From contig JBFXDW010000003.1 of assembly GCA_050180745.1 (NCBI GenBank), positions 1-36,065 on the forward strand: DNA of 36,065 bases, written 5' to 3'. How positions within the stretch are numbered: the first letter of the stretch is position 1; every line of letters starts with the position of its first letter. Under the pieces are notes generated by a model. It was not told the DNA's origin. It saw only the letters and a program-made list of their open reading frames with translations, and searched no databases. Positions 2,043 through 22,528 of this stretch are shown one piece after another. A program made the translations under genes and the position numbers. The DNA comes from Bdellovibrionales bacterium (lineage in GTDB: Bacteria; Pseudomonadota; Alphaproteobacteria; UBA9219).

Positions 2043-2112
2043 TAAATCGGTTTCCTATACCTGTCATTCCCAGCGCAAGAGTGCCTCAAAAAAACACCTT
2101 AGCCAAGAGGGT

Positions 2113-2147: not shown

Positions 2148-2179
2148 AGATGAAACACCCAAAACCAAGCGAGGATTTT

Positions 2180-2575: not shown

Positions 2576-2780
2576 TCGGCTCCACAGCTTCAAAACCGGA
2601 CGATGGGCGTCAATACGGCTCCTTCAGGCGCTTTTTGCACAGAAAAAAGCAAAAAACGAGCAGCGAACCTTGACGTTTCTGCGACAAATTCCTCAAATGG
2701 GTTAATATCTTATGACGAACGAATCATTTATTGGCGCATCCGAAGATTTAAGGAGCGCGAAAGGAACCCAAGGTCAAGAA

Positions 2781-4682
2781 ATGGCGAAAAGTCTCTTAGA
2801 ACAACTCCCCACCATTGTCGCGGAAGGAAAGCGAGAAGCCGAACGCATTATGGAGCGCTTGGAAAGTGCCCAGCGCATCGGCCTTCAGACCCGCGAACTT
2901 GTTATCCCGTCGCGGGACACGAATTGGCAAAACATGTTTGCGCGGGCGGAGAAGGCTTCGCATGACCTTGATCCCGCAAATATGAACCGCCTCATTTACG
3001 GCGACAATCTTCTGGCGATGGCCGCGCTCTTGGCGGGGAATGATGAAACGCCATCCATGCGCGGCAAGGTTGACCTGATCTATATCGACCCGCCATACGA
3101 CAGTAAGGCGGATTACCGAACGAAGATAAATCTTCCTGGCGATGAAATTGAACAGAAGCCAACTGCGATTGAGCAGTTTGCGTATTCTGATACATGGAAG
3201 GATGGTACATTCAGTTATTTGCAGATGATTGTGCCGCGGCTAGTGCTCATGCGAGAGCTTTTGAGTGATACTGGGTCCATCTGGGTCCATCTGGATTGGC
3301 ATGTTTCACACTACGTGAAGATTGTTCTAGATGAAGTGTTCGGGCGAGAATTATTTAGGAACGATATTACATGGCACTATGCGAATTCTGGACTAAAGGC
3401 GCGGTCTAGGAAATTTCATCAAGTTACTGATAATCTCTATTGGTACACAAAATCTTCTGAATTTACCTTTAATCATTTATTCAAGGAAAGAAAGGATGGC
3501 CAATCCAAGCAGGCGAAGCGTAAGTTCAATCCTATAACCAAGAAAGCCGATATGGTTAGGGATGAGCAGGGAAATATAGTGTATGAAATCAGAGACGAAG
3601 TTTTAGAAAACTCTCTTTGGGAAACTGGTAGTATGAGTAATAGCCCAGAACGGATAGGATATTCAACGCAAAAACCAGAAGCACTCTTACAGAAAATAAT
3701 CCAATCAACATCTAACGAAGGGTATCTAGTTCTGGATGCCTTCGCGGGTTCTGGCACAACAGCGGCAGTCGCTGAAAGACTTAGTCGTCGCTGGATTGCA
3801 ACCGATCTTGGAAAGCCCGCTTGCATGGTTACACGCAAGCGACTGATCGATCAGGACGCTAAGCCTTTCCTTTATCAGCATGTAGGCGACTATCAAGTTG
3901 AAATGGCCCGCAGCACAATGGGGCGCAAATTCCGCGTTGGTGATCTTTCTGAAATTGTCCTTCGCCTCTTTGGTACTTTGCTGCTTCCCATTGAAGAGAA
4001 CCCAAACCGCAATATGGGGCGGGTTCCGCACACCAAAATGCTGGTTCTTGCCGATAGCCCGAACAAGCTCACGGGTCTTGCAACGCTTAAACGCGCCATC
4101 GAAATCCGCGATAATCTGATGGGCGGCTGGGATAAGGTCATCATTCTGGGCTGGAACTTTGACTCCAACATTGGACAGGACATCCAAGCTCTTAATCAGG
4201 GCGACAAACTCGAAGTTTTGGTTATCCCTCCCGACTTGCTCGACCGCCTAAAGAAAAAAGGCGACAAGTTGAAGACGGAAGAAGTCCGTTTCTCCTCGCT
4301 TCAATACGTAAAAATCAAACCCATTGAGCGCACGAAGGCCGGAAGCAAAGAAACCTTGACGGTTGAGCTTGATAATTACGTTCTCCTTTCTCCCGACGCC
4401 CTTAGCCTCGATGAGGCAAACAAAAAGAAGTTGCAAAGCATTATCAACAAGGAGCCGATGGCACTTATCGAGTATTGGAGCGTCGATCCCGACTATGACG
4501 GCCATGTGTTCCGCTCGGTCTGGCAGGATTATCGCGGAAACACTGAAAACGATGACGATCCGTTCCGCGTCGTTACTACAGCCCAATTAACAGACCTTCC
4601 AGCCAAAGACGGCAAACGTCGCGTTTGTGTGCGCGTCGTTGACGTTTTCGGCTTTGAAGCTGAAGCCATTACGGAGGTCTGA
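2781..4682 (+). CDS. mod: Type III restriction-modification methyltransferase (Mod, beta-class amino-MTase); alternative start at 2712
   Basis: Motif IV IYIDPPY precedes motif I DAFAGSGTT. LIYGDNL and YSTQKPEALL motifs present. Lies upstream of a Res helicase-nuclease. Confidence 0.92.
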   Translation: MAKSLLEQLPTIVAEGKREAERIMERLESAQRIGLQTRELVIPSRDTNWQNMFARAEKASHDLDPANMNRLIYGDNLLAMAALLAGNDETPSMRGKVDLIYIDPPYDSKADYRTKINLPGDEIEQKPTAIEQFAYSDTWKDGTFSYLQMIVPRLVLMRELLSDTGSIWVHLDWHVSHYVKIVLDEVFGRELFRNDITWHYANSGLKARSRKFHQVTDNLYWYTKSSEFTFNHLFKERKDGQSKQAKRKFNPITKKADMVRDEQGNIVYEIRDEVLENSLWETGSMSNSPERIGYSTQKPEALLQKIIQSTSNEGYLVLDAFAGSGTTAAVAERLSRRWIATDLGKPACMVTRKRLIDQDAKPFLYQHVGDYQVEMARSTMGRKFRVGDLSEIVLRLFGTLLLPIEENPNRNMGRVPHTKMLVLADSPNKLTGLATLKRAIEIRDNLMGGWDKVIILGWNFDSNIGQDIQALNQGDKLEVLVIPPDLLDRLKKKGDKLKTEEVRFSSLQYVKIKPIERTKAGSKETLTVELDNYVLLSPDALSLDEANKKKLQSIINKEPMALIEYWSVDPDYDGHVFRSVWQDYRGNTENDDDPFRVVTTAQLTDLPAKDGKRRVCVRVVDVFGFEAEAITEV

Positions 4683-4684
4683 TT

Positions 4685-5617
4685 ATGACGCGAAGTAAAA
4701 CCCGCTACACAGTACCAGATACGGAAGGAGAAACAATTACTCCCAGTCGCCTCAAACAACTTGGTAAGGATCGCCAGATTGAGATTATGCGGCAATGGTT
4801 TTTTGAAAATTATGAAGACCCTGTTAATCGAACTCCTTATGAGAGTGCAGAGGGAGGATATATCTATATCTACGGGGGACCTTTCGAGGCACAAGAGGAA
4901 CTCGGTGGAGAATTTGGCGGGCTTGTCAAAGATGAGTTCATTGATGAACTCGCAGACGAACTAAATGATATTAGTTGGGAATGGACTCACACAGAACGGC
5001 CTAGCGATTATGATGATTTCTATGCGGTCGAAGCAACGCTTGATCCAGATATACCTGAAGATGCGCTACAAATCAGGATTGAAAAAATACGCGAGCTATT
5101 GGAACAAAAGGAACTGATCGATTCTAACCTCCACACCTTCCTGTTAATGATGATCTACAGCTTCAGCATCACTACGCTCGAATGCTTTTTATCTGATACC
5201 TTTATACGTGCGATAGATGCCAGCGATGTTCTGAAAAAGAAATATGTGACCGAGGGAAAATTGAAAATACCTTTGGCAAAACTTATCAGCATGAAAGATG
5301 TGAAAGAAGCTGAGGAAGCTGTCAATTTGCAGATCAGAGCAACACATCTAAGGACATCATATCATGATTTAGAAACGGCAAGCAGATTATATAAAAAAGT
5401 TCTTAATGTGGAGTTATCTGAAATTTCTTCAACAGATAAATTGCGTGACTATGTACGCAAACGACATGATTTTGTTCATAGAGGCGGGAAAGATGAACAA
5501 GGTAATGAAGTGACAACAAGCAAAGAAGAAGTCAAAGAACTTCTCGATGAGATTGAAAAGTTTTGTCTAGAGATCAAAGGCAAACTTAATCCGCCATTCT
5601 CGGATGATTTTTTCTAA
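4685..5617 (+). CDS. HEPN-domain putative RNase with an acidic N-terminal domain
   Basis: R-x4-H motif RHDFVH followed by RGGK (5462-5479). Upstream helix ITTLECFLSD. N-terminal WF..NYEDP..PYES.EGGY segment. AT-richer than the flanking genes. Confidence 0.75.
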   Translation: MTRSKTRYTVPDTEGETITPSRLKQLGKDRQIEIMRQWFFENYEDPVNRTPYESAEGGYIYIYGGPFEAQEELGGEFGGLVKDEFIDELADELNDISWEWTHTERPSDYDDFYAVEATLDPDIPEDALQIRIEKIRELLEQKELIDSNLHTFLLMMIYSFSITTLECFLSDTFIRAIDASDVLKKKYVTEGKLKIPLAKLISMKDVKEAEEAVNLQIRATHLRTSYHDLETASRLYKKVLNVELSEISSTDKLRDYVRKRHDFVHRGGKDEQGNEVTTSKEEVKELLDEIEKFCLEIKGKLNPPFSDDFF

Positions 5618-5628
5618 CGGAGCATGGC

Positions 5629-8562
5629 ATGAATGGAATAAATGACCTTACCCTCGCTCGTCGTCTAACATGCCGTGTGGCAGAGGCCTGCACTGGCCTT
5701 GAAAACGGCGATGCGCCGATCCTCTCTCAAGTTAGCGATGCCACCGCCGAACTTTTGAAATGGTGGTTCCAACAGGATTTTATGGATACGCGCTCTTACA
5801 ATTTCCATGAAGGGCAACGCGCCGCGATTTTGAACATTATCTACGCCCATGAAGTCCTGAAAACGGCTTCACTTAAGGGACTTTATGAGAACGTCGCGCC
5901 AGAAGTTCTCGTGGCCAGCGCCCAAGCGGTGGAACTTATCGGCGCGGATAAAAACGACTGCCCCAAATACTGCCTCAAGATGGCGACGGGTACGGGCAAG
6001 ACGTGGGTTTTGCAAGCCCTTATGGTTTGGCAGATTCTCAATGCCAACCGAGATCCCAGCAATTCCCGTTATACAAAGAATTTCTTGGTCGTTGCCCCTG
6101 GTCTTATCGTGTATGACCGTCTGCGCGACGCATTCGAGGGTAAAGAACGCGACGGAAAGCGTGATTTTGCAACGTCTGACCTTTCGATTTTTCAGGATCT
6201 ATTCATCCCAGCCGCGCACCGCGACGAAGTTTTTCGCTTTGTTCAGGGAGCCGTGTGCCCCAAGGAAGAAATTGGACGTAAGGTTACGTCGGGCGGCATT
6301 ATCGCCATAAGCAACTGGCACGTTCTAAGCGAAGAAGGCGAGGATGACGGCCAGCAAGAAATGGTTTTCGCCCCTGGTACGCGTCCCGATGCAAAGGACG
6401 TTATTAAAGACCTGCTTCCCTTAACGCCAGGAACGTCGCAGGGAAATGACCTCAACGTCCTTAACAGGCGTTTTCAGCGCGGCGGGATCCTGAACTATTT
6501 GTGTGAGCTGCCGAGCTTGATGGTGTTCAATGACGAAGCACACCATATCCACGAGTTTAAGCGCGAAGGCGAAGTTTCCGAGGTGGAGTGGCAGAAGAGC
6601 CTTTCCTTGATTGCTGAACCCAAAGCGGATCGTTTCGTTCAGGTGGACTTCTCAGCCACGCCTTACAACGAGGTTGGTACGGGCAAAAAGGCCAAGAAGT
6701 CGTTCTTTCCGCATATTGTCGTGGATTTCGACCTTAAAACGGCCATGCGCCTTGGCCTTGTAAAGTCGCTCGTCCTCGATAAACGAAGCGAAATTGGTGC
6801 GCTTTCCGATGAGCAATTGGAGTTCAAGGCTTACCGTGACGAAAACGGAAACCCGCAACTAGCCGAAGGCCAGCGCATTATGCTTCGCGCAGGCCTGACC
6901 AAGCTTCGCAAACTTGAAGAGGATTTTGCCAAGCTTGATCCCGACCGCCATCCCAAAATGCTTGTCGTTTGCGAAGACACGTCTGTCACGCCCCTCATTG
7001 AGGACTTTTTGCGTCTCGAAGGGCTGGGGCATGACGAGATTTTGCGCGTTGACTCCAACCGCAAAGGCGAACTCAAAATGGATGAATGGAAGGTTCTGCG
7101 TGAGCGCCTGTTCGATGTTGACCGCCACGCGCACCCGCGAGTCATTATAAGCGTTTTGATGCTCCGTGAAGGTTTCGATGTGAACAACATTTGCGTCATT
7201 GTTCCCCTTCGCGCCTCGGCTGCTGGCATTTTGCTGGAACAAACGATTGGACGTGGCCTGCGCCTCATGTGGCGCGGCGCGGATTTTGACGACATTAAGC
7301 ACGAAAACCGCAAGCTGATCTGCGAAGGTAAAACGCCGGAAAGTATGATCGACATTCTTTCAATCGTTGAGCATCCGGCTTTCATCGAGTTCTATGAAGA
7401 GTTGATTAAAGAGGGTCTTGTTGGCGAAACTGAAGACGACGACAATACCGGAGGCTCTTCTACAGGTGACTTGGTTGCTGTTGGGTTGCGCTCGAACTAT
7501 CAAGACTATGATTTTGCCATTCCGTTTATCCTTCGAGAGAGAGAAGAGGAAGTGCAAACGCGGGAGATTGCCGTTTCTTCCCTTGAACCTTTTACGACCT
7601 TTTCAGTTGATAGGCTGAAGGCAATGATCGGAACCGGAGAGAAGTTCCACTCTGAAGACGTTCAGGACAAAACTCGTTTTGGCGACTATCGCGTGAATGG
7701 CGGCGTGATGACGGCGACAGGGTACAATGATTACCTTGGGCGTATCGTTCGCCGCATCACAGAGGCTCTAAGCCAACCGCTTACCGATAGCTCCACCAAG
7801 TACAAGAAAGGCACCGAGTTTCCGCACATCCAGATCAACCGCGCCTATCTTGCGGAAGGGATTGACGAGTACATACGGACGCGGCTTTTTGAAAAGCCGT
7901 TCGATCCTTTTGAGAATGAAAACTGGCGCATCTTGCTTGTCGATCCTGTGACAGAACACATCATGAAGATTTGGGCGCGTCAGCTATTGGCGGCAGAGGA
8001 AACGGCTGTTACGGCGGATGCCGAAGTGACGCACCGCCTGCTTTCGGAAGTTCCCAAGCTTACCATGCGCGAAAGCTCGTCTCTCGCGGTTAGCAAAAGC
8101 ATCTATTTGCGTCTGCCTTATCCTTCCCGCAGCGGCGGACTAGAGCGGGCCTTTATCGAAACAGCAGATCGGGACGGCTCCGTCGATGGTTTCTGCAAGC
8201 TCAATGAGCAAAAGCACACCTTCACAAGACTGCGCTATATCAAGGAAGATGGGCTTCCGGCCTTCTATTACCCCGATTTTCTGGTTCGAAGCGGTGACAA
8301 GATTTATCTCGTCGAGACAAAGGCACAAGGACAAGTTAATACGCCAAACGTGAAGCGCAAGAAACGCGCCGCCGTCTCATGGTGCGATAGGCTCAACAGC
8401 CTCGCGCCGGAGCAGCGCGGCAATGCCGAATGGCACTATGTTTTGCTTGGCGAAGGCGTTTTCTATGAATGGCGAGACAAAGGCGCGTCCATTAAGGACA
8501 TGCTGGAATATGCAAAGCTAAGGCCTGTTGACGAAAGGGTTCAATCGGCGTTTGCTTTTTAG
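5629..8562 (+). CDS. res: Type III restriction endonuclease Res subunit (SF2 helicase plus PD-(D/E)xK nuclease)
   Basis: MATGTGKT (motif I), DEAHH (II), SATP (III), LREGFD (V), QTIGRGLR (VI), and C-terminal YYPDFLV...LVETK. Confidence 0.93.
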   Translation: MNGINDLTLARRLTCRVAEACTGLENGDAPILSQVSDATAELLKWWFQQDFMDTRSYNFHEGQRAAILNIIYAHEVLKTASLKGLYENVAPEVLVASAQAVELIGADKNDCPKYCLKMATGTGKTWVLQALMVWQILNANRDPSNSRYTKNFLVVAPGLIVYDRLRDAFEGKERDGKRDFATSDLSIFQDLFIPAAHRDEVFRFVQGAVCPKEEIGRKVTSGGIIAISNWHVLSEEGEDDGQQEMVFAPGTRPDAKDVIKDLLPLTPGTSQGNDLNVLNRRFQRGGILNYLCELPSLMVFNDEAHHIHEFKREGEVSEVEWQKSLSLIAEPKADRFVQVDFSATPYNEVGTGKKAKKSFFPHIVVDFDLKTAMRLGLVKSLVLDKRSEIGALSDEQLEFKAYRDENGNPQLAEGQRIMLRAGLTKLRKLEEDFAKLDPDRHPKMLVVCEDTSVTPLIEDFLRLEGLGHDEILRVDSNRKGELKMDEWKVLRERLFDVDRHAHPRVIISVLMLREGFDVNNICVIVPLRASAAGILLEQTIGRGLRLMWRGADFDDIKHENRKLICEGKTPESMIDILSIVEHPAFIEFYEELIKEGLVGETEDDDNTGGSSTGDLVAVGLRSNYQDYDFAIPFILREREEEVQTREIAVSSLEPFTTFSVDRLKAMIGTGEKFHSEDVQDKTRFGDYRVNGGVMTATGYNDYLGRIVRRITEALSQPLTDSSTKYKKGTEFPHIQINRAYLAEGIDEYIRTRLFEKPFDPFENENWRILLVDPVTEHIMKIWARQLLAAEETAVTADAEVTHRLLSEVPKLTMRESSSLAVSKSIYLRLPYPSRSGGLERAFIETADRDGSVDGFCKLNEQKHTFTRLRYIKEDGLPAFYYPDFLVRSGDKIYLVETKAQGQVNTPNVKRKKRAAVSWCDRLNSLAPEQRGNAEWHYVLLGEGVFYEWRDKGASIKDMLEYAKLRPVDERVQSAFAF

Positions 8563-8630
8563 ATTAACTTTTGAGCGGCAAAGGGTTATCCCTTCGACTA
8601 TAGTTGCTCATCTTTAGAATAAGGAGCCGC

Positions 8631-10052
8631 ATGGAAAACCTTCCCAAATACAAGCTGCTTTCTTCTGAGACAGCAGGAGGAAAACCTAATCTTCTCGACG
8701 GAAAAACAGCGGAGGAAGGCCTGCGACGGATACAGGCACTTCTGGCAGATTGGCTGCGCATGGAGAATGTTGTTGTTTTAACTGCCGCTGGCTGCTCTTT
8801 TGCGTGTGGCGGAAGACTGATGGCTGGACCAAAAGATAATAATCTGGAGTGTGTTGTTCTTAACGCCGTTGAAGCCGCGCAATTGGATGAAAACGCCAAA
8901 GCCGTTATTCAGCACAGAAAATCAACATGGCCAGAAGATGATGCTTATGGCCCCTTTGGATTTGAGGAGTGGCTAAGTTATGTGTTTAACGCGCCAAGTC
9001 TGTCCCAACCTGCATCTTCTCCCATTAAGTCTGTTATTTGGAAAACGATTAAAGACCAGGAGGAAAAGGGTCTAGCTCTCGATGATAAGGATTTAACAAG
9101 TTTGCGTAGCCTTATTGAAAAAGCAATCTATGCAGAATGTTCCTTACAAATTGATCGCACAGAACTTTCATCAGATCACGAACAAAAAACGTCGGGTCAT
9201 ATTCCTTTTTTAGCAAAACTCATCGCACGAGATGCAAACCTTGGCAGGACGCATTTGTTCACCCTTAATTATGACACCCTATTCGAACAAGCGATGGAAG
9301 AGCTTGGGATACAGTATTTTGATGGTTTTTCAGGAAAGGCTTGCTCTCGCTTCGATCCGTCGGTCTATGGCTTGGACATTTATTATCCTGGAGACGTTGC
9401 TGAAGGGCGGGTTCGTCGTTTTGATAAATTCTTGCAGTTCTACAAACTACATGGGTCTCTTCATTGGTCTTTTGATGAAAAAAACATATGTCGCGCAAAA
9501 CACCAAGATTTTGATTTTGTAAAAGACTATAAAGAACAGACCAATGAGAAAAAGGCGGAACGGCTTATATCGAAAGAATTTGGAGCTATTACCTCTTATG
9601 GGATACTCCCAACCTCACAGAAGTTTTCGCAAACGCTCGAAATGCCGTATGCTCATCTATTTCGCTTATTTCACGCAAGATTAAACCAACCGCAAACATT
9701 TCTGCTCGTCCTTGGTTATGGTTTTGGAGACGAGCATGTCACGCGAATTATTGAAACAGCCCTCATGAATCCATCTCTCGTAATGCTGGTTGTCGAACCA
9801 AACCCCAACAGCCTTGTCGTTAAAAAGATACTGAATTACCAGAAGCTAGGACAAAGGGCTTTCGTTTTGACATCAAGCGATGAAAGTTGGAAAAAGAACC
9901 CCTACCAATATGCAACCTTTTCTGACTTTGCCCAAAACATTATGCCCGACATTAAATGGCTTGAAGATTTCAAACGCCTTCGTTCTTTTGAAGAGCAAAT
10001 TGGTAATGCGCAGAAAGATGGAGCGCCATCAGCCATGTTAAGCGAGGGATGA
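8631..10052 (+). CDS. sir2: SIR2-family NADase (Sir2 of a Sir2-HerA defence pair)
   Basis: AAGGAG RBS before ATG 8631. Motifs VVLTAAGCS, FTLNYD, KLHGS and LGYGFGDEH. ATGA overlap with HerA. Confidence 0.9.
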   Translation: MENLPKYKLLSSETAGGKPNLLDGKTAEEGLRRIQALLADWLRMENVVVLTAAGCSFACGGRLMAGPKDNNLECVVLNAVEAAQLDENAKAVIQHRKSTWPEDDAYGPFGFEEWLSYVFNAPSLSQPASSPIKSVIWKTIKDQEEKGLALDDKDLTSLRSLIEKAIYAECSLQIDRTELSSDHEQKTSGHIPFLAKLIARDANLGRTHLFTLNYDTLFEQAMEELGIQYFDGFSGKACSRFDPSVYGLDIYYPGDVAEGRVRRFDKFLQFYKLHGSLHWSFDEKNICRAKHQDFDFVKDYKEQTNEKKAERLISKEFGAITSYGILPTSQKFSQTLEMPYAHLFRLFHARLNQPQTFLLVLGYGFGDEHVTRIIETALMNPSLVMLVVEPNPNSLVVKKILNYQKLGQRAFVLTSSDESWKKNPYQYATFSDFAQNIMPDIKWLEDFKRLRSFEEQIGNAQKDGAPSAMLSEG

Positions 10053-12196
10053 TGGAACAAACCCGTGTCATAGGCCATGTTGTTGCTATATATGGTTTCA
10101 GATTAAAAGTAGAGCTTTCCCCTGATGCAAAGTCTTCGTCAAGGGCAACCCCAGATGGGGTTCAACGCGCTGTTGCTATAAACTCCTTTTTAACATTTGA
10201 TCTTGGTGCGGGAACTTATGCGATAGGAATGTTAAGTGACTTGGAAGCGCGTGAAAGCTACGACCCAACACAAGACAAAGAATTATCGTTAGAACTGACA
10301 AAACCGCGACGCATTGCTTCCGTTCAACTTTTAGGAACAGTTAAGCAAGATGGAAAAAGGGAATGGAAATTTGATACTGGCATTACGGTGCTGCCAACAC
10401 TTGATACGCCTGCAGAGGTTGCCTCTCCAGACATTCTCTCCGGTATTTTTGCCTGCCCCCCAAAACGAAACAGGCCCCATTCCAGCACAACAGACGATTA
10501 TGATTTCCCGCTAGACTTAGGTCATCAAACGGGAAATGAGGACGTTATAATCAAAGCATCTTTTAATGACTTATTCTCTCGCCCTCTTGCTGTTGTAGGG
10601 AACACGGGGTCTGGTAAATCTTATACAGTCGCAAGCTTGTTACGTGGCATTATCGAGCTTGAACGGTTTTCCACGATTTCAGATGCAGAACCACACGTCT
10701 TTATCCTCGACATTAACGGCGAATACGCAAACGCCTTTTTAGATAAAGGCAGATCGTCCTATACACGCGAGCCAAACAAAATATATTTGAATGGAGAGGA
10801 ATTTTGTGTTCCTGCGTGGTTGATGAATGGTGAAGAAGTTTGCGAGTGGTTACAAGCTTCTGAAGCTACACAAGAGCCAGTATTGAAAGACTGGTGGGCG
10901 ATTGCAAAATCAAAACAGATGGGTATCGGATCATATGATCCATTACAAATTGCTATTCAGAAAATAGACGGGGCAATTGGTTGGTTGGACAAAAATAGCC
11001 CCAAGAGTGCTTTCAAGCTCGCGCTAGATCATGCCAAACAATATGCGCCTGACGAAGACTGGGACAGTCTCACGGCCCTTCCAAAGTGGTCAGATGATAC
11101 TTCAACAAAAAAGGATGACTGGGCAAAAATCACCAATGACAAGGAAGTTCGCGATTCTCTCGGAAAATTTCGTGGGAATCTGTTGGAAAAAATATCTATA
11201 AGACAACAGGATGGCATTAACTTTGCGAGAACCGCCGATTCTCCTCGGTTTGTTGCCTTAAATGATTTTCGTGACCCAAATCTTGTCGATAGATCAACAG
11301 ACATAGATGGAAGTAAAAAAATAGATCAGTATCTTCTAACATTAAAACTTCGTCTTCGCACAAGGCTTGATGATCGACGCTGGCAGTCATTCTTTAGCTA
11401 TGAACAGCAAAACGTTCACACGTTTGAAAATTGGATAGAGAAAATGGGGATCGGCCAGAAGAACGGCTGGCGAATCTCTATTTTGGATCTTTCAATGCTA
11501 GCCTCCGAAGTTTTACCCTTCGTCTGCGCTTTGATTGGTAGGCTCCTTTTGGAGACGAGGGAAATGTTGCGGCCAGATGTTCGTAGCAAATATCCCTGGG
11601 TGCTCGTTTTAGAAGAGGCCCACAATTACGCAAGGCCATCGGCACTTGCAGAAGACCGTGGGCAAACCCTTTCCCGTAGAGCTTTTGAGCGCATCGCTAA
11701 AGAGGGACGCAAGTTTGGTCTCTCTCTCATTGTCGCTAGCCAACGCCCAAGTGAGATTAGTCCGACGATTGTAAGTCAATGTGCAAACTTTTTTGCCCAT
11801 CGGTTGCAAAATCCAGATGATATAGAACATTTCCGCCGCATTATCCCGAAACAGGCACAAAGGCTGCTCGATCAAATAACAGTTTTAGCGGCAGGCGAAT
11901 CCATTGTCTTCGGAAGTGCTGTGCATATTCCAACACGTGTTCAGATTAGGATTCCATCCCAAGAACCGTGGAGCGCAACAGCAGCGCCATATGTTGATTG
12001 GGCAAAGACAGACCAGTTCCCAATAAAAGACGTTATTACAGACTGGGGGCTTGTGGAGGAAAAAGTCGTTGAGAAAGATTTTTCTGCGGGAGATAGTCAG
12101 CTAGAAGAAGAAACCACTACGGCTCCTGCTGCACAAGGAAGCAGCTATCCCTCACAAAATGGTTCCAATGATCTTGATGACGAGATACCGTTCTAA
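10049..12196 (+). CDS. herA: HerA/FtsK-family ATPase with N-terminal HAS barrel and SSB-like C-terminal tail
   Basis: Walker A GNTGSGKS, Walker B VLVLEEAH, IAKEGRKFG and ASQRPSE. Ends ...NGSNDLDDEIPF. Confidence 0.92.
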   Translation: MMEQTRVIGHVVAIYGFRLKVELSPDAKSSSRATPDGVQRAVAINSFLTFDLGAGTYAIGMLSDLEARESYDPTQDKELSLELTKPRRIASVQLLGTVKQDGKREWKFDTGITVLPTLDTPAEVASPDILSGIFACPPKRNRPHSSTTDDYDFPLDLGHQTGNEDVIIKASFNDLFSRPLAVVGNTGSGKSYTVASLLRGIIELERFSTISDAEPHVFILDINGEYANAFLDKGRSSYTREPNKIYLNGEEFCVPAWLMNGEEVCEWLQASEATQEPVLKDWWAIAKSKQMGIGSYDPLQIAIQKIDGAIGWLDKNSPKSAFKLALDHAKQYAPDEDWDSLTALPKWSDDTSTKKDDWAKITNDKEVRDSLGKFRGNLLEKISIRQQDGINFARTADSPRFVALNDFRDPNLVDRSTDIDGSKKIDQYLLTLKLRLRTRLDDRRWQSFFSYEQQNVHTFENWIEKMGIGQKNGWRISILDLSMLASEVLPFVCALIGRLLLETREMLRPDVRSKYPWVLVLEEAHNYARPSALAEDRGQTLSRRAFERIAKEGRKFGLSLIVASQRPSEISPTIVSQCANFFAHRLQNPDDIEHFRRIIPKQAQRLLDQITVLAAGESIVFGSAVHIPTRVQIRIPSQEPWSATAAPYVDWAKTDQFPIKDVITDWGLVEEKVVEKDFSAGDSQLEEETTTAPAAQGSSYPSQNGSNDLDDEIPF

Positions 12197-13439: not shown

Positions 13440-13783
13440 TATTCGTTTCCTTTCAGTTGGGTTTCGCAGTTGTCGGCGGCTTCGGCCAAGGCATCGAAAG
13501 CCACGTCCTCTTCGTCCGTGATTGTGTCGGTCACGGTGTCCGCATCGACGGCGGTTTTTAGCGCCGTGATCTTGGTTTTGTGGGCGTAAATGGCTGGCGC
13601 ATAGTCGGCCTTAAAGTTTTCTTTGCCTTTGCACTTTTCGATTGCATCCTGATATTCCCGCCCGCGAGACAGGTGAGAATTAAGCTGTTGCTCGGCTAAT
13701 AGCCCGCTACAGGCCGAAAGCCCCAGAAGCGCAAGGCCGAGACAAACGACCTGTGCGCCTTGTTTGAGTTGCGTCATATTCAT
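13439..13783 (-). CDS. Lipoprotein, possible outer-membrane spanin-like
   Basis: GAAAGGAG RBS, ATG 13783 overlapping the endolysin stop (ATGA), signal peptide with LSAC lipobox, two further Cys. Confidence 0.7.
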   Translation of the reverse strand: MNMTQLKQGAQVVCLGLALLGLSACSGLLAEQQLNSHLSRGREYQDAIEKCKGKENFKADYAPAIYAHKTKITALKTAVDADTVTDTITDEEDVAFDALAEAADNCETQLKGNE

Positions 13784-14244
13784 GTTGTTCTTTCTCCTTT
13801 CAGTTGGATTGTGCTGCTTTTTTTCCAAAGAGCCGCTTCCGCCGCACGGCGGCGGGATAGGCCGTCCAGAACCTTTCCTTTCGATTTGTTCCAACGGGCA
13901 AGCTGCGCCGGAACATGGTCGTAAAGGCCTTGATTGAGTTTTCTCAAAAGGGTTGATCGCTTGAAGTTGCCCGCGCCCACGTTGAAAACGAACGAGACCA
14001 GCGCGGCGAATTGTCTTCGGCTTAACGGCACGTCAACGCATTGTTCAATAGGCAGCGCGGCCCTGGTTAGGTCGTCCATAAGGAGGGCTTCGGCCTGTTC
14101 TTTGGTTATGGCTTGGCCCTGCACAACGCCTTGCGTGTGGCCGTAGCCGATTGTCCATTTACCTGCCGGACACAGATAGGCGGACAAGCGCAAACCCTCG
14201 AATATCTTGACGAGATCAAGCGCCTCTTGAGGGATTTCAGGCAT
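13780..14244 (-). CDS. Endolysin, GH24 phage lysozyme
   Basis: FEGLRLSAYLCPAGKWTIGYGHT (E-x8-C-x5-T triad), ALVSFVFNVG, GLSRRRAAE. Confidence 0.95.
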   Translation of the reverse strand: MPEIPQEALDLVKIFEGLRLSAYLCPAGKWTIGYGHTQGVVQGQAITKEQAEALLMDDLTRAALPIEQCVDVPLSRRQFAALVSFVFNVGAGNFKRSTLLRKLNQGLYDHVPAQLARWNKSKGKVLDGLSRRRAAEAALWKKSSTIQLKGERTT

Positions 14245-14246
14245 GA

Positions 14247-14546
14247 CTAGCTATGCGCCGTCCACCAGCGCAGCAGATTGTTGGCAATGAACCCTGCCAC
14301 GGCACCCAGCGATAGGATCACGGCAAAGCCGCCTTTCCAGCGGTTGGCTAGGCGGTCGAGCTGGTCGAGGCGGGTGTCAACGCTATCGACCTTGGTTTTT
14401 AGGTCTGTGACGGCGGAGAGAAGGCTTGCGACTTGCGCTTCCAACCGTCCGATAGAACGGAAGAACTCGATTTGCTCGTTGGGGCTCATGGCAATAGGCT
14501 CCTGATCCAGCCCGTTGGGAAGGCTTTCTGTGTGTATTTGAGGCAT
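14247..14546 (-). CDS. Holin-like membrane protein (coiled coil plus C-terminal TM, XhlA-like architecture)
   Basis: Heptad segment IGRLEAQVASLLSAVTDLKTKVDSVDTRLDQL followed by TM GGFAVILSLGAVAGFIA. Directly upstream of the endolysin; the start may be an internal Met. Confidence 0.7.
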   Translation of the reverse strand: MPQIHTESLPNGLDQEPIAMSPNEQIEFFRSIGRLEAQVASLLSAVTDLKTKVDSVDTRLDQLDRLANRWKGGFAVILSLGAVAGFIANNLLRWWTAHS

Positions 14547-14549
14547 GGA

Positions 14550-14759
14550 TTATCCGGCGATGATGATCACGATGGGCTGTGCGGTTGTCGCGCAGGAAGC
14601 TGCTGCGTTTGAGCGAATGATTTCAACGGTGAGTTGGCTTGATCGCGCCTGAGGCGTTGCAGGGCGAGATATGATCTCTGTTGCGCAGGCACTCACGCGC
14701 CCGTGACCATTGAGCGGTTTGCGTACGATTTCTGCGGTGGTTTGAGAGACGAGAAGCAT
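14550..14759 (-). CDS. Small tail-fibre-associated protein
   Basis: TGATG coupling to the upstream gene. Three imperfect repeats (VSQTTAEIV, VSACATEII, SSQLTVEII). Confidence 0.6.
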   Translation of the reverse strand: MLLVSQTTAEIVRKPLNGHGRVSACATEIISRPATPQARSSQLTVEIIRSNAAASCATTAQPIVIIIAG

Positions 14760-15775
14760 CAGGCTTGGACCTTGTAGCCGAACTCGGCGGCGTTAATGTC
14801 AGTTTCAGTCCATGATGTTGCAGCAGAAGGGTTCTGCTCCCAAATGTGCCTGTAAATGAGATAGGAGTCGGAGAGGCTGATGTTGCTTCCCTCATGAATC
14901 GTGCCGTCATTCAGAGCTATCGCTCTTAAAATCCGTGGTCCGGCATCGTCCTTACGGGCCATCAAGTTGATTTGTGCGCCGTGGATCACGTTGCCATTTG
15001 TGCCAAGGTCGTCAAAGGAGAAGGTATCAACGTCTCCGACCACGTCGCTTGTGTTGTAGCTTGTGTCCGCGTCCGCTGGGGTTTCATCCACATTCTCCCA
15101 GTTGGCGGTCGAGCCGACGGGTGTGAAGGCGGCATTGCTGCCCTGACCATCCGGATAAAGCGTGTCTATGCGGCAGTCACCCAAATAATCGTTGTTCGTG
15201 TTCCCTGTGCCATCACATATGTAAAGATCATGGAATCCCGTACCAACCCATGAGGCACAGCCAAAGCGAATGGTTCTGGCCGTTGCAAGGCTGGAAGAAT
15301 ATTTGGTGTCACCCGTATAGGTGGCCCAGACCTGTTCGTTAACTCTGACCTCAAAAGTGCCGTTCGTGTCGGCTATTACGGCCTTAACTTCAATGTAGTT
15401 CCATACGCCTGCTTGAAGTGTTTGGGCGGCTGTCGTGAGCAGGACGGATCCGTCACCGCGATAGAGCTGGATCACGCCATTGGTGAGGCACAGGGTGAGT
15501 TGCACGCTGGAGGTCGCGTCAACAAACTGAACCGTTTTGGCGGTGTTCGTGGAGTTAATTTCTGGACAGAAGGCGAAGCCAACAATCCATGTCGTTTGAT
15601 CATCAAGCGAGATCGCAAAACGATCCCCACCGCTGTTGTACAGCTTGACGGCAACCGATCCAGCGCGCCTGCCGACCATGGTGCTGATTGAGGCGTTGCT
15701 GACAGTTGTATATTTTAGGGGCATTTGAGCTGGTATGGCATAATGGTCAAACCCGTCGATAAAACGTAGAGCCAT
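14759..15775 (-). CDS. Putative receptor-binding/tail fibre protein with a LamG/concanavalin-like beta-sandwich
   Basis: AAGGAG RBS. Beta-rich, with WNYIEVK..., FEVRVNE and HDLYICD motifs. Follows the DUF2793-like fibre gene. Confidence 0.65.
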   Translation of the reverse strand: MALRFIDGFDHYAIPAQMPLKYTTVSNASISTMVGRRAGSVAVKLYNSGGDRFAISLDDQTTWIVGFAFCPEINSTNTAKTVQFVDATSSVQLTLCLTNGVIQLYRGDGSVLLTTAAQTLQAGVWNYIEVKAVIADTNGTFEVRVNEQVWATYTGDTKYSSSLATARTIRFGCASWVGTGFHDLYICDGTGNTNNDYLGDCRIDTLYPDGQGSNAAFTPVGSTANWENVDETPADADTSYNTSDVVGDVDTFSFDDLGTNGNVIHGAQINLMARKDDAGPRILRAIALNDGTIHEGSNISLSDSYLIYRHIWEQNPSAATSWTETDINAAEFGYKVQA

Positions 15776-15789
15776 AGAGGGAGTCTCCT

Positions 15790-16512
15790 TCAGATGCGTA
15801 GGCCCGCCAAAGCGAAGCCAATGTCAGATAAGGTGTCATCCTGTGTCGTGGGAGCTATAAGGGTCAGGATGTCGCCTGTGGCAAAGTCTGTTGTCGTGGG
15901 GCAGTTGAATGTTGCGGCTGTACTGGAAGCGGCAAAGCGCAGCGTGGCGAACTCAGCCCCGTTCTTGCAGATCGAGAAAGAAACCGAGGCAGTCGCGGCA
16001 ACCGCTGCAACCCCCATGCTTAAGGGCATATTCGCAAGAAAGCGCACGGATCGGGGTAAAGGAAAGCGCAGGATAATGGCCCCTTCAACGGGCTTGCCCA
16101 GCAAAGAGCCGCCAATATCATACGGAGCCGTGCCAGCTTCGGCAGCGATGGTGAAGTTGCTCCCATCGCAATAAAGGAGCTTGCTTTCGCCGCTCCCGAA
16201 TGAAAGAGCCGTGCCGGATGGTGTCTTGACCGAGAGGGCATAGCCTCCACTCGTCGCATTAAGGACAAAGAGCAGTTTGGGATATGCCGGAACGGTGATT
16301 GTCCGCGCCGCCGTCAGGACTCCGGTAAACTTAAGGGCCATGCTGCCTAGCATCTGAGCATCACTCAGCGTCAAATCGGTATCAGAAAGCGTGATTTCCG
16401 TAAGTTGACATAAGGCTTTGTCCAGCGCGTCAAAGGCCGTGTTAGCTGTGACTTCCTTTTGCGCTTGGGAAGAGACGATATGCGCTATCTCAAGATTGGG
16501 GGTTGTTGTCAT
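15790..16512 (-). CDS. Tail fibre protein, DUF2793-like N-terminus
   Basis: MTTTPNLEIAHIVSSQAQKEVTANTAFDALD resembles the GTA/alphaproteobacterial phage fibre N-terminus. Located after the tail tip gene. Confidence 0.75.
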   Translation of the reverse strand: MTTTPNLEIAHIVSSQAQKEVTANTAFDALDKALCQLTEITLSDTDLTLSDAQMLGSMALKFTGVLTAARTITVPAYPKLLFVLNATSGGYALSVKTPSGTALSFGSGESKLLYCDGSNFTIAAEAGTAPYDIGGSLLGKPVEGAIILRFPLPRSVRFLANMPLSMGVAAVAATASVSFSICKNGAEFATLRFAASSTAATFNCPTTTDFATGDILTLIAPTTQDDTLSDIGFALAGLRI

Positions 16513-16617
16513 GTTTCTAACCTTTTGTTCTGGAACGGGTCAGGTAACTGCTTTATGTTCTTTAGGGTTTGTCTTTACCTTAAATCGCTAAAAGGCTCTC
16601 AAGGAGGAGATCGCTCT

Positions 16618-17106
16618 ATGACGTTTGAAATAACACCTGCATCACCCAATGACCTCGACGAAGCCCTTTCGTTTATTCAAGAAATTATAGGCGCGGGTGA
16701 AACCTACGCTTTATCAGGAGACATGGTGCGACAGGACATCCATGATTATTTTTTTCACAAAGGGCACAAGGTGTTTAAAGCTACTTTAGATGGCGAAATT
16801 GTTGGCATTTGTTATCTCCGTGCAAATCAAAGTGGCGGCGGGAGCCATGTTGCTAATGCCGGATTCATGGTCTCTTCTCTTGTGCGCCGAAAAGGCATAG
16901 CGCGACGAATGGCAAGGCATATTCTTGATGTAGCCAAGGAATCAGGGTTCATGGCCATGCAGTTCAATTTTGTTGTAAGCACAAACATGGCGGCGGTCAC
17001 TTTGTGGAAGGATTTGGGCTTTGATATTGTTGGAACGCTTCCCAAGGCGTTTAATCATCCTGCGCAAGGAAAAGTTGACGCTTTAGTCATGTATAAATTT
17101 CTCTGA
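16618..17106 (+). CDS. GNAT N-acetyltransferase (moron, antisense to the tail genes)
   Basis: AAGGAGGAG RBS. Acetyl-CoA motif VRRKGIARRM, plus HVANAGFMV and VVSTNMAAVTLWKDLGF. Confidence 0.9.
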   Translation: MTFEITPASPNDLDEALSFIQEIIGAGETYALSGDMVRQDIHDYFFHKGHKVFKATLDGEIVGICYLRANQSGGGSHVANAGFMVSSLVRRKGIARRMARHILDVAKESGFMAMQFNFVVSTNMAAVTLWKDLGFDIVGTLPKAFNHPAQGKVDALVMYKFL

Positions 17107-17110
17107 AGGC

Positions 17111-20100
17111 TTAAACCGTGGCCTTTCCTGCGTAGCCGCGCCCGATGGTTGCGTTCATTTGATAAATCGCCACGGCCAGCGTAGATTGTGCTGCGCCAAA
17201 ATCTTCTTCCTGCTCGGCAACGCTATAGGCCGCGCTTGTTGAACTGGCCGTGAGCGTTCGCACTACCGTCTCGCCGCTCAAAATGTCGATTTGATAGGAT
17301 TCCTCGCTCTCAAAAACCGGCACGTCGATCCCATCAAGCCATTCCCCATTCCATCGGGCGCGCCGCACCCATGAGAGCGTTAGATTGCCTGAAGTGTCGC
17401 GGCTTCCTGCAATATGCGCTGGCGCAAAACACCGGAGCGAGGCTGCGTTGTAAGCAAGGCTTGATTGCCGCGCGTCATCCCACTCACCGCCGGAGGGCAG
17501 GCATTTGTAATAAGACGTAGCCCCGATCTGTGATTGCCCCATATTCATGCGGTAGAGATCGCCAGCAGCCAAAACGATGAACCGCTCTGCGACCGTATGC
17601 GTTCCGATGGCCCATTCTGTGCCGCGCCGCCCGCGCAACAGGCCGGAAAGCTCATAAAGGCCACTCGATACCAGCGTTGCATCCCGCCATTGGATAATTT
17701 CGTGGCCCAAAAGCGCGACGTTCGCATAGTTTAAAACTTCAAGTTCGGTTTTGCTGTCGAGGGAGCCGGAAGATAGCGCAACCTGAAGCACGTTGTCCTC
17801 GTCCCAAACCCACGGGCTGCGCGGGTCGTCCAGCGCGTTCGCGGCCCAACCGAAGGCCGGTTCTTCGGAGCCTGTCCCTACAATGTCCCACGTAACCGCG
17901 TCAGTCGAACGGTAGAGGCTAGCACTGCTGGCCCCTTTGAGGCCGAAGGCGTAATAAAGCCCCAACCCATCATCAGCCTCGCGCAGCATGGGAAGATCCA
18001 TGATAAAGGCCGAGATTGGCGTGGCGATGGCGATTGCGCCAGACTCCAACGCCGCGCCTGCACCAGCTTTGTCCGAACGATAGGCTAGCGCGTCTTCCAG
18101 CGTGGCTTGGCAGGACACAACGTTATTCGCGCCAAAATCCACCTGCGTCAGGCGCACCTTAAGCATCACATCTTTTAGCGTGAGATTGATAACATCGGTT
18201 GGATTAAGCCGAAGCCATTTGGGCGGAAGATCAAACCCAACGGTTGTCCGCCCGATCCAAGCGTAAGTCAGGGTCTTTTCAGCCACTTGCGCGGCTTCAT
18301 CTGCCGTCAGAACAACTGTAAGCTCCACGCTTTCTAAATCCCGTGTCACAACCGCATTGCTGGATCGCGCCGCGTGCTGGGTGTTGGTCTGATAATCGCG
18401 GTTTGGGTCGTAATGCGTGAGGTCGATCCGAAGCGGTAATTCAATCTCTTGTTCCCGCGTTTCGGTCAGGCGTACCGGATCGTTGTTGCTTGATCCTTCT
18501 ACGGCACCCAGATCGTCATAGGGGATCGTGGCAACGACTTCCTGCCCACGCGGGACGAACGTCAAAAGACCGTCCGTTTCCACCGCGTCAATGAAATAGG
18601 TTCCGAGCAAGGGCTCCAGAACATCCCGCGCAGACGAACGGCGGCTCATAACATAGCCGTTCACGGATTCATTGACTTCATTCACCAGAAAATCGGTTTG
18701 CTTAAGGCCTGCGCGAAGGCAAAGATCGGATAAAATATCCGCAAGGGCGACCCGATTGGAGCCATATCGCTCTAGCGGATATTTAACATAGCCATCATTT
18801 GTCGAGACAATCATGCTATGGGTGAATTTCTCATAGCATCCACAAAAATGGGTGGCATAAGTCGGGGCATAAGCAGACAGGTCGTATGTTTTCTCGATCT
18901 GCATAGTTACAAGATTGACCAAGCTGATAGTGGCCCCACTGCATGTCCAAAACTGCCCGTTTTGGGGATAGGATTTGTCTCCTTGCAGCGTATAACCGAC
19001 AGCAAGATGTACGCCATCAACCGTGGCGACATAGCCGGAATGAATGTCCCATTTGACGATCCGACCTTGCGCGTTGAACTTGAAGTAAAGATAGCCTGTC
19101 GTATCATCCCAAAAGACAACGTTCGGGTTCACGCCGCCTGTATAGGCCGCGCACTCCATGATCTCCACGTGCGCCACGCCCAGCAAGTTAAAGGATACCT
19201 TTTTCGCGAAGGAAGCCGAGATTTGCCAGATGTTACCTTCCCCATCCTCGCATAGAGGGGCTTCCTCATAATGTGAGTCCAGAACCTCGGAAAGATCACG
19301 AAGAAGCTCAAAATCCGTGCTGTAAATCATCCGCGTGCGCGGAACGAGGATTTTGTTGCCTTGCACACTGCCCGTGACACTGTAGCCTATGCGGTTTTTG
19401 GTTTTGTCCATGACCGCCAAGGTTTCTGGATGGCGTTTAACAAGATGCATCCCGACGCCATAGGCGTGAGAGGCATGGTAAAAATAGCCTTCGCTATCGA
19501 AGCCATAGAGGTCGCCATAAAGGTTATGTTCAACATCGAAGGGAACATTCAGCAACAGGACGTTCTTGATAAGGTCATATTTGTAAATTGTGCTATCCGT
19601 TGTAAAGCCGACGAGCGTACCGTCCGGAGGCCAGATGGCCCCGCCGTTTCGGTATTTGCCAGCAACTGTCGGGAAGATCGTGGCATCGCAAGCCATGTCG
19701 CCAGAGCCGACGACCTCTGCGCTGATACTGGGAATGCGGTTTGAAAAGTCAGCAAGCTGCAAGTCCGTGAAGACCAAATAGCACAGGCCACGGTGCGCAG
19801 GCACATTGCCTGTGCCAAGGTGCATTTCCATCGTGCTATCGGGCTTTTGCGTTTCCGTTCCCAAATGAATGCGGATTACACCTGATTGTTTTTCGGTCGC
19901 TTGTGTATTGCTGGCCGAGGCATCGTAAATCAGCTTTGTATCCGCCCAAATGCGCCGGATAGCAGAGACCGGCCCCGCGCACAGTCCTACCGCAAAAGAA
20001 ACCGAATAGGTGTAGCTTGCTTGTTTGGCTCCACCGCCGCCTTTACCGCCCGCGCTGCTTTCATGGCGCGTTTCTTTCAGATCCGTTGACCAAATGACAT

Positions 20101-22525: not shown

Positions 22526-22528
22526 GGA

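Follow-up and report, generated by a model that had tools for sequence, protein, structure and literature searches.

The window, by which we mean the whole stretch of 36,065 nucleotides analysed, carries a Sir2-HerA operon whose HerA protein ends in eight residues of the kind found at the C-terminus of bacterial SSB (SSB-Ct). The operon belongs to a defence island with type III R-M, HEPN and WYL genes, which is placed at the end of a prophage. The features on which the argument is built are the following.

1053..8562: remaining part of the defence island, upstream of Sir2-HerA (Pfam and PADLOC matches), with the next four genes
1053-2042, minus strand: WYL/WCX regulator (Pfam/PADLOC)
2712-4682: type III methylase (Pfam/PADLOC)
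4685-5617: HEPN RiboL-PSP protein (Pfam/PADLOC)
5629-8562: type III Res helicase (Pfam/PADLOC)
8604..10052, plus strand: Sir2, the NADase-type partner gene of the Sir2-HerA operon (Pfam SIR2_2, PADLOC; TTG start uncertain)
10049..12196, plus strand: HerA ORF, 715 aa, C-terminal end ...NGSNDLDDEIPF
10049..12052, plus strand: HerA ATPase core, aa 1-668 (PADLOC HerA PDLC04106, Pfam DUF87)
12053..12169, plus strand: linker, aa 669-707, of low complexity, not conserved in sequence and predicted to be disordered
12170..12196, plus strand: SSB-type C-terminal tip DLDDEIPF, aa 708-715, and TAA (from the translation)
13780..34686, minus strand: prophage lysis and structural module framing the island (Pfam matches, ORF list), with the next six genes
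13780-14244, minus strand: lysozyme-like, read from the translated sequence only
17111-20407, minus strand: tail protein (Pfam)
23597-26128, minus strand: tape measure (Pfam)
30208-31236, minus strand: capsid E (Pfam)
31946-33169, minus strand: S49 protease (Pfam)
33166-34686, minus strand: lambda-type portal (Pfam)
26221..27168, plus strand: AbiJ-like protein of the same prophage, AbiJ_NTD4 + DUF7014, HEPN-like, 315 aa, ending DQDDDIPF

The first-pass annotation had recognized a Sir2-HerA system, and both of the overlapping adjacent genes indeed match their families in PADLOC and Pfam. Sir2 (Pfam SIR2_2, E 3.4e-12; PADLOC SIR2 PDLC04085, E 3.3e-208) is directly upstream of HerA, its stop overlapping the HerA start at 10049-10052, and it is kept beside HerA in 70 of 80 loci. 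HerA matches Pfam DUF87/HerA (E 7e-22) and PADLOC HerA PDLC04106 (E 2.9e-298), the latter over residues 2-668 against a profile of 667 positions. Moreover, its Walker A (GNTGSGKS, G184-S191) and Walker B (LEEAH, L521-H525) motifs are intact, being invariant in the HerA alignment. Judged by sequence, the pair can be assigned to the Sir2-HerA systems on two counts, an intact HerA-type P-loop ATPase of the FtsK/HerA superfamily and an adjacent SIR2-family gene. In the 80 loci, conservation around the HerA gene is limited to Sir2 and HerA, and no operon-encoded partner of the tip was found; the other "conserved clusters" round HerA, considered as partner genes, were rejected as shadow frames inside Sir2 and HerA. 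The search of a phage collection gave no close match to HerA or to the AbiJ-like protein.

The C-terminal tail of HerA

The translation of the ORF 10049..12196 finishes with the letters ...TTTAPAAQGSSYPSQNGSNDLDDEIPF, followed by the TAA stop, which bears out the acidic SSB-type tip DLDDEIPF that had been proposed for HerA; the segment 12050-12196, in which it had been placed, comprises linker, tip and stop. Since the PADLOC profile stops at residue 668, the last 47 residues of HerA are outside the family model. HerA chains of Sir2-HerA in the PDB match the query at E 3.6e-50 and below, and in the aligned chains (571-696 aa) the match stops about residue 666-667, which is the end of the core. 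The best chain, 9c1m (585 aa), the only one whose alignment was read, ends a few residues past its match. In the AF2 model residues 671-715 have pLDDT < 50 and no secondary structure, the whole model being mediocre (mean pLDDT 61), and about 22 alignment columns of the linker are without a majority residue.

This lack of a column consensus and the AF2 prediction suggest the kind of disordered linker that precedes the SSB-Ct motif. The linker had been called SSB-like, a description that holds for its low complexity and predicted disorder and fails for its composition, which is A/E/S/P-rich with 5% Gly versus G/S-rich with 26% Gly in the SSBs of relatives. The tip has the position of an SSB-Ct motif, at the extreme C-terminus with a Pro-Phe end and then the stop, and it fits the acidic consensus D-[LF]-D-D-[DE]-I-P-F. 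HerA has no SSB or OB match in Pfam (SSB family PF00436); it is not an SSB, and the tip alone is common to both proteins. When the region 669-715 was used by itself as a protein query, only HerA itself passed among 18 candidates. We think that the last 47 residues, formed by a flexible linker and an 8-residue tip, are probably an addition to an otherwise standard Sir2-HerA system of the abortive-infection type.

Conservation, background and origin of the tip

The first-pass annotation had regarded absence of the tail from close homologues as evidence against its importance. The tip is widespread among them: among the 120 best HerA homologues, a set at 56-100% identity that includes the query, 74 end in an acidic-IPF tip behind a variable linker, as do 73 of the 98 homologues with a tail of at least 20 aa. 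The tails of the tip-bearing homologues measure 23-48 aa (median 33) and have the consensus end [DE]-L-D-D-[ED]-I-P-F. The tip is thus kept in close homologues, across ~45% core divergence, while the linker drifts, which argues for selection. Its distribution extends further, as 21 of 79 HerA loci in species-representative genomes bear it, including Acidobacteriota, Nitrospirota and gammaproteobacterial MAGs, in a set where at least 9 loci are not assessable, being cut, fragmentary or frameshifted. A quick tree of HerA with 68 rows contains a 40-row sister clade without the tail and needs at least 9 changes of the tip, 5 of them forced by well-supported branches; the midpoint root serves for drawing only, and therefore we make no claim of gain versus loss. 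As far as these sequences indicate, the tip is an accessory feature, dispensable for the HerA family.

The background of such ends is low. Of 14,780 stop-to-stop frames (>= 50 aa) counted over the entire 1.79-Mb assembly, 4 end in an acidic-[ILVMF]PF tip. Among the frames of at least 150 aa at the 80 HerA loci, 22 of 1217 have the tip, namely 21 HerA and one frameshifted HerA fragment; with 80 of the 1217 frames being HerA-like, none of the ~1137 non-HerA frames has it. Across 71 genomes of the order, each genome has 0-2 copies of the exact DD[DE]IPF-stop, and reversed-pattern controls have none. Twenty-nine such sites were read: 27 belong to SSB and the other two to another tip-bearing HerA and to a phage DUF6511 protein; a tip-bearing DUF6511 protein is present in this genome and in a second one, G053. 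The background rate of the tip can be put at ~1e-4 or less.

No host ssb was found in the organism's own 89.9%-complete assembly, either with the PF00436 profile or by tblastn with relatives' SSBs, and for this reason the tip was compared with the SSBs of relatives. Five of these 20 SSBs end in DLDDEIPF, identical to the HerA tip in 8/8 positions, four end in ELDDEIPF, and all 20 fit [DEG][LIF][DN]D[DESN][IV]PF. That DLDDEIPF is an alphaproteobacterial SSB form, as had been stated in the first-pass annotation, is confirmed by these relatives and by excerpts of PMC13490951, which give LDDEIPF and DLDDEIPF as common alpha-proteobacterial SSB ends and count SSBs ending in DLDDEIPF in 4352 of the 18,841 alpha-proteobacterial assemblies retrieved there. 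In 23 genomes the tip of HerA was set beside that of the resident SSB; the two are identical in 8/8 positions in two of these genomes (G071 and G077) and show mismatches elsewhere, a test of co-variation that has little power because both tips are so conserved. In a Bryobacterales genome HerA ends DLDDEIPF and the resident SSB DDDDIPF; in a Nitrospira genome HerA ends ADDEIPF, and neither of the two SSB homologues read, of four matches, ends in IPF.

On these grounds of conservation, low background and likeness, we consider it very probable that the tip is under selection as an SSB-Ct mimic. The further proposal that the tail was captured from the 3' end of an ssb gene is rejected as unsupported: when the 147-nt tail was compared by blastn-short with 79 loci that carry ssb, it matched only over the last 18-27 nt, the part coding for the tip, and the linker differs in composition. 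At this match length, convergence and capture cannot be told apart from the sequences.

The tip is not special to HerA. The first-pass annotation had missed two further bearers of this kind of end, an AbiJ-like protein encoded elsewhere in the window and a subfamily of Shedu. The AbiJ-like gene is inserted on the opposite strand, with the tape-measure gene on one flank and the rest of the tail genes on the other. Its product matches AbiJ_NTD4 (E 1.3e-9) and DUF7014 (E 6e-11) in Pfam, and has an R-x5-H motif with R252, N253 and H258 nearly invariant or invariant, so that by sequence it would belong with proteins that join an AbiJ N-terminal domain to a HEPN R-x4-6-H motif. The AF2 model has pLDDT 92.8, falling to near 55 in the last ~20 aa, and the highest-probability PDB matches of this model in Foldseek are HEPN domains, with weak E-values of 0.1-1. 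The tip is present in 84 of 150 diverse representatives of the AbiJ_NTD4/DUF7014 family, mutually < 50% identical, and in 82 of 120 members of the SduA_C subfamily of Shedu nucleases. The same tip on unrelated defence effectors points to regulation or addressing rather than to one enzyme chemistry, and its occurrence on HerA, the AbiJ-like HEPN protein and Shedu suggests, from sequence comparison, a sensing or addressing module common to unrelated effectors.

What the tip may do

How infection is sensed is the main open question for most abortive-infection systems, and in recent work phage SSBs and single-strand annealing proteins recur as triggers or escape loci. Our best explanation overall, to which we give a probability of about 0.4, is that the tip is a selected mimic of the host SSB-Ct that serves as an integrated bait for phage proteins of recombination or replication. 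The working form of HerA is a hexamer, and therefore the complex would display six tips, an arrangement inferred from the solved Sir2-HerA complexes. With six tips, Sir2-HerA could dock onto any protein with an SSB-Ct-binding pocket, and phage proteins that need the host SSB tail would also seize the HerA tail. Candidates are the single-strand annealing proteins of the Red-beta, RecT, Erf and Sak kinds, besides other phage proteins that bind the SSB tail. Engagement of the tail would then bring the complex to phage replication intermediates, release a restraint, or both, the end point being HerA ATPase activity and NAD+ depletion by Sir2.

The steps of this explanation are not equally secure. 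Binding of the tip to SSB-Ct pockets is predicted from its sequence and we hold it to be likely. The only co-fold, of host Pol III chi with HerA residues 669-715, gave ipSAE 0.06 and 0.07, where the mark is 0.32, and carries no verdict either way (alignments: A1 for chi, 30 rows; A2 for HerA, 52 of the 74 tip-bearing homologues). That phage proteins specifically are the target is a tentative proposal, for which there are suggestive precedents. According to excerpts of the respective papers, Red-beta binds an SSB-Ct peptide with a Kd of ~11 uM (PMC6393309), RecT function tracks the host SSB-Ct (PMC13490951), and escape mutants of lactococcal AbiJ map in 9/9 cases to Sak/Erf-like annealing proteins (PMC12184496).

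Several points speak against a bait. The 40-row clade without the tail suggests that the tail is dispensable for the HerA family, and the Bryobacterales and Nitrospira genomes indicate that the HerA tip need not equal the resident SSB tip. An E. coli Sir2-HerA system senses phage SSB, and a search of PMC13434337 gave 0 matches for "IPF", the tip being unreported in that text; the sensing of SSB-like cues thus needs no tip. Moreover, a host-type tip should always be occupied by host SSB partners, so that a bait needs an extra specificity step. Finally, lactococcal AbiJ may be outside the AbiJ_NTD4/DUF7014 family.

The rival that survives best, unlikely as we judge it, addresses the tips to the host: they would dock Sir2-HerA onto Pol III chi, RecO, PriA, RecJ or RNase HI, so that the complex is parked at replication or repair sites, or so that a host nuclease or helicase is recruited to DNA held by the HerA ring. 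Archaeal HerA, which works with NurA, provides a model for such nuclease recruitment. The identity of the tip with host-type SSB tips fits docking onto host proteins, as do an operon without a partner gene and a genome that encodes both Pol III chi and RecO, whereas the ExoI C-domain was not found in the 89.9%-complete assembly. It is also a difficulty that a pocket filled by HerA cannot hold SSB too, which makes delivery to SSB-coated DNA not straightforward, and that recruitment of DNA enzymes makes little sense for a HEPN RNase-like protein with the same tag.

A quite improbable alternative makes the tip a gauge of ssDNA load, in which binding to free SSB at its unoccupied OB fold, or residence in SSB condensates, keeps the effector quiet until a surge of phage ssDNA frees the tips and permits activation. 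The SSB tip does bind the SSB OB fold, but weakly, and HerA linkers are not SSB-like in composition, both of which count against it. In its favour, excerpts of bioRxiv 797431 and PMC11947617 describe SSB condensation as dependent on linker and tip and controlled by DNA, and a part of the DARNA preprint describes several defence systems as responding to ssDNA or to the state of SSB.

Smaller still is the probability that multivalent tips simply vie with tip-bearing phage proteins (phage SSBs, DUF669, DUF6511) for host partners, starving phage replication independently of Sir2 activation. Phage or prophage replication proteins do bear the same tip, as with DUF6511 here and in G053 and, in the sections consulted, DUF669 (PMC13687109) and Bas52_0087 (preprint). 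Such competition would need high expression and would affect host SSB equally, and it leaves unexplained why toxic effectors specifically bear the tag.

Just as slight is the chance that the acidic tail acts within the complex as a DNA mimic or plug on the HerA pore or on Sir2, with auto-inhibition as its role and the likeness to SSB-Ct incidental. Acidic C-terminal tails of phage SSBs shield DNA-binding clefts, which is a point for it, and an acidic C-terminal tail is described for T7 SSB in the part of the DARNA preprint consulted. A generic plug, however, needs no exact D-D-[ED]-I-P-F end, matched in up to 8/8 positions, on three unrelated folds. A tail without function, whether a neutral or accidental extension or an artefact of annotation, would agree with the many family members without a tail, but it is already contradicted by the conservation pattern, with a tip kept while the linker drifts and a background of ~1e-4 or less, and its chance is negligible.

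Returning to the selected SSB-Ct mimic as a bait, a broader form of it is that the tip is a portable "integrated decoy" of unrelated anti-phage effectors (Sir2-HerA, AbiJ-like HEPN, Shedu), which would display the one host peptide that phage proteins of recombination and replication have to bind, would thereby keep watch over the SSB hub, and would fire when a phage protein binds; we regard this generalization as doubtful. If it were true, bacteria would have an equivalent of the integrated decoys known from plant NLR receptors, and there would be one explanation for many defence escapes through mutations in phage SSB or annealing proteins. A true bait would reveal mimicry of a host hub motif as a general principle of sensing, and would make the sensed phages predictable as those with proteins that dock on the host SSB tail. 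Docking onto host proteins, if true, would connect immunity by NAD+ depletion with the machinery of replication and repair. In either case the tip would be a simple sequence marker for finding further defence proteins. We think that the tip, as a short, conserved and deletable peptide by which effectors of three unrelated families would be linked to the SSB hub, is a directly testable handle. In the CC-licensed PMC papers and bioRxiv preprints searched, no account was found of HerA, Shedu, AbiJ or another defence effector bearing an SSB-type tip.

Comparison with known systems

The closest likeness is to bacterial SSB-Ct itself, with which the HerA tail has in common the extreme C-terminal position, the terminal Phe, up to 8/8 identical residues, a flexible linker and display on an oligomer, the last of these inferred for HerA. 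Unlike SSB, HerA has no OB fold or ssDNA-binding domain, the carrier is an FtsK/HerA-type ATPase, the linker is A/E/S/P-rich, and the binding of partners is predicted. Known Sir2-HerA (Nezha) systems, including E. coli type III, which is triggered by phage SSBs according to excerpts of PMC13434337, resemble the present one in the two-gene operon, the intact ATPase motifs and a thematic link to SSB cues. They differ in that the aligned solved HerA chains match only to the end of the query core, whereas the tail is present in 74/120 close homologues here. Lactococcal AbiJ, as described in excerpts of PMC12184496, is likewise an AbiJ-named HEPN abortive-infection protein, which phages escape through mutations in single-strand annealing proteins, and proteins of that class are known binders of SSB-Ct; it and the product of 26221..27168 are likened by the AbiJ name and the HEPN kind.

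A ring-shaped motor with an SSB-like tail has a parallel in the T7 replisome. The hexameric helicase Gp4 has a tail similar to that of the T7 SSB Gp2.5, and thus a ring-shaped motor there also bears an SSB-like acidic, Phe-ended tail, with a docking site common to motor and SSB. Unlike in HerA, the motif is another one, the arrangement is internal to the phage, and its role is in replication and not in defence. For Gp2.5, the acidic C-terminal tail with a terminal Phe is described in the DARNA preprint. Phage SSB-like proteins such as DUF669 (excerpts of PMC13687109) and Bas52_0087 (part of a preprint) are alike in being mobile-element proteins that copy the host SSB tip, presumably exploiting the host hub. 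Those proteins act on the phage side, in ssDNA-binding replication or repair, whereas the bearers of the tip here are defence effectors: an ATPase-NADase, a HEPN-like protein and a PD-(D/E)XK nuclease.

HerA tail within a prophage defence island

The window corresponds to a complete contig, C3. Its Sir2-HerA operon is the last unit of a defence island located at an end of a prophage; the remainder of the contig is taken up by the prophage's genes for lysis, tail, tape measure, capsid, protease and portal. The source assembly has 1.79 Mb in 145 contigs, with 89.9% completeness and 48% G+C. The genes concerned are:

1053-2042, reverse strand: WYL/WCX regulator, upstream of the type III restriction-modification pair and on the other strand
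2712-8562, forward strand: type III methylase / HEPN / Res helicase set, the type III restriction-modification pair
4685-5617, forward strand: HEPN RiboL-PSP / HEPN_RES_NTD1 gene, wedged between type III methylase and Res helicase
10049..12196, forward strand: HerA, 715 aa, ending in ...APAAQGSSYPSQNGSNDLDDEIPF and then stop

The HerA ATPase was identified by Pfam DUF87 (E 7e-22) and PADLOC HerA PDLC04106 (E 2.9e-298), and the gene directly upstream is SIR2 (PADLOC PDLC04085, E 3.3e-208), whose stop overlaps the HerA start. A 114-aa ORF without Pfam match (12206-12550, reverse strand) converges on the HerA stop.

The PADLOC profile is exhausted at residue 668 and, in solved Sir2-HerA complexes, the alignable part of the HerA chains stops at residue 666-667, so the last 47 residues are an extension, formed by a linker of about 39 residues and a tip of 8. 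The first-pass annotation had described a linker and DLDDEIPF after the ATPase core, and this is what the translated ORF contains. The AF2 model is mediocre (mean pLDDT 61) and leaves residues 671-715 without structure, in agreement, not a strong one, with predicted disorder.

Relation to SSB tips and conservation

The tip resembles the C-terminal docking peptide of bacterial SSB (SSB-Ct). No ssb was found in the window's assembly, 89.9% complete, by PF00436 search and tblastn with relatives' SSBs, and the comparison of the last 8 aa proposed earlier was made with the SSBs of 20 relatives, 12 from within the family and 8 from the order. All 20 SSBs fit [DEG][LIF][DN]D[DESN][IV]PF at the C-terminus; five are exactly DLDDEIPF, as in HerA, and four ELDDEIPF. 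The earlier statement that DLDDEIPF is a common alphaproteobacterial SSB form is borne out by counts in PMC13490951: of the 18,841 alpha-proteobacterial assemblies retrieved there, 5795 have LDDEIPF and 4352 have DLDDEIPF. Capture of the tail from an ssb 3' end, also proposed earlier, is unsupported, since the DNA similarity to ssb genes is confined to the 27 nt encoding the tip and the linker composition differs from that of SSB.

Among the best 120 of 717 HerA homologues (56-100% identity, query counted), 74 carry an acidic-[ILVMF]PF tip with consensus [DE]-L-D-D-[ED]-I-P-F. Tails of tip-bearing homologues have 23-48 aa (median 33), and no linker alignment column has a majority residue; a tail of at least 20 aa is present in 98 of the 120, the tip in 73 of these 98. 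In species-representative genomes the tip was found at 21/79 HerA loci, at least 9 of the 79 being cut or frameshifted, and tip-bearing loci include MAGs labelled Gammaproteobacteria, Chromatiales, Nitrospira, Bryobacterales, Acidobacteriaceae and Thermoanaerobaculia. In an arbitrarily rooted quick tree built from 68 core sequences, the window's HerA falls in a clade with 11/13 tip-bearing rows, one 40-row clade is entirely without tail, and the tip label requires at least 9 changes versus 15.4 in shuffles. Taken together, these sequence counts, loci and tree indicate that the tip is long-lived and conserved where present, yet accessory to the family.

HerA tips and resident SSB tips are alike in general form, with details that sometimes differ. 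In a Nitrospira MAG, HerA ends in ADDEIPF and is near-identical to that of a Chromatiales MAG, while the two SSB homologues read, of four matches, end in Q-G and I-P-A, none in IPF; this suggests that the gene was recently transferred to a host whose SSB tip differs. An Aestuariivita MAG has a seemingly frameshift-split HerA, whose 163-aa C-terminal piece (7568-8059 of locus L061, forward strand) retains DSDDDIPF, and a relative of the same order (G052) has another tip-bearing HerA (DLDDDIPF), with the gene 5' end cut by the edge of locus L039.

Tip-bearing proteins other than HerA

As judged from C-terminal sequences, the carriers of the SSB-type tip extend beyond HerA:

26221..27168, forward strand, same prophage as HerA: AbiJ_NTD4 + DUF7014 protein, 315 aa, ending in DQDDDIPF
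Contig C1 of the same assembly, locus L001, 1501-2073, reverse strand: DUF6511 protein ending in DFIDDEIPF, in a phage replication/recombination module

The AbiJ-like gene is an opposite-strand insert that separates the tape-measure gene from the remaining tail genes. Its product has 1250 relatives among 1.84 billion cluster representatives, and the tip is present in 84 of the best 150 (query counted; mutually <50% identical). Confidence in the protein model is high (pLDDT 92.8), the final ~20 residues excepted. For the C-terminal domain, Foldseek points to a likeness with HEPN domains (probability about 1, with E-values of only 0.1-1), and an R-x5-H motif is near-invariant. Just downstream, a 115-aa ORF without Pfam match (27171-27518) could encode a partner.

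In a relative (G007, locus L011, forward strand), a Shedu nuclease (350-aa frame, SduA_C E 5e-24) adjoins the host ssb and ends in ELDDSIPF, versus DLDDSIPF for that SSB; 82 of its 120 best homologues have an acidic-IPF tip.

The neighbours of the C1 DUF6511 gene encode a PD-(D/E)XK nuclease, a helicase fragment resembling RecD and a 239-aa protein that matches no Pfam family and has a tail rich in Q and P. Contig C8 holds another, related frame ending in SPEVPF, and the DUF6511 protein of another relative (G053, locus L040) ends in LDDEIPF.

The tip pattern occurs in 4 of 14,780 frames of at least 50 aa in the whole assembly, and in none of ~1137 non-HerA frames of at least 150 aa around 80 HerA loci. 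Exact DD[DE]IPF-stop is present in 33/71 genomes of the order, the window's included, with 0-2 sites in each of the other 70 searched and zero occurrences of the reversed control pattern. The 29 sites read, with five more unread, correspond to 27 SSBs, the G052 HerA and the G053 phage DUF6511 protein. Three sites lie in the window's genome, and no SSB is among them.

Possible role of the tip

The exact SSB-Ct ending, the flexible linker and the occurrence on three unrelated effector types would most simply mean that the tip docks to pockets that bind SSB-Ct, as a means of sensing or addressing. Neighbourhood comparison found no conserved third gene beside tip-bearing Sir2-HerA operons; therefore, the partner must be a host protein, a phage protein or the Sir2-HerA complex itself.

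We favour a role of the tip as bait: phage proteins obliged to bind the host SSB tail would bind the effector-borne copy. Support comes from the binding of SSB-Ct peptide by Red-beta (PMC6393309), the RecT compatibility that tracks host SSB-Ct (PMC13490951), the lactococcal AbiJ escapers, 9/9 in Sak/Erf annealing proteins (PMC12184496), and the triggering of E. coli Sir2-HerA by phage SSBs (PMC13434337). Weak points of the bait model are that the tips would be constantly occupied by host partners and that many HerA relatives have no tail. Alternatively, the tip might tether Sir2-HerA to host partners, be released from free SSB as ssDNA rises, or compete with tip-bearing phage proteins; the tail might also be an intramolecular plug.

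Sir2-HerA and SSB-Ct are each already known, and so are phage proteins carrying a copy of the SSB tip (PMC13687109; also a preprint). No description of defence effectors bearing it was found in the CC-licensed papers and bioRxiv preprints searched. The SSB tip on defence effectors is a general, simple and directly testable feature.
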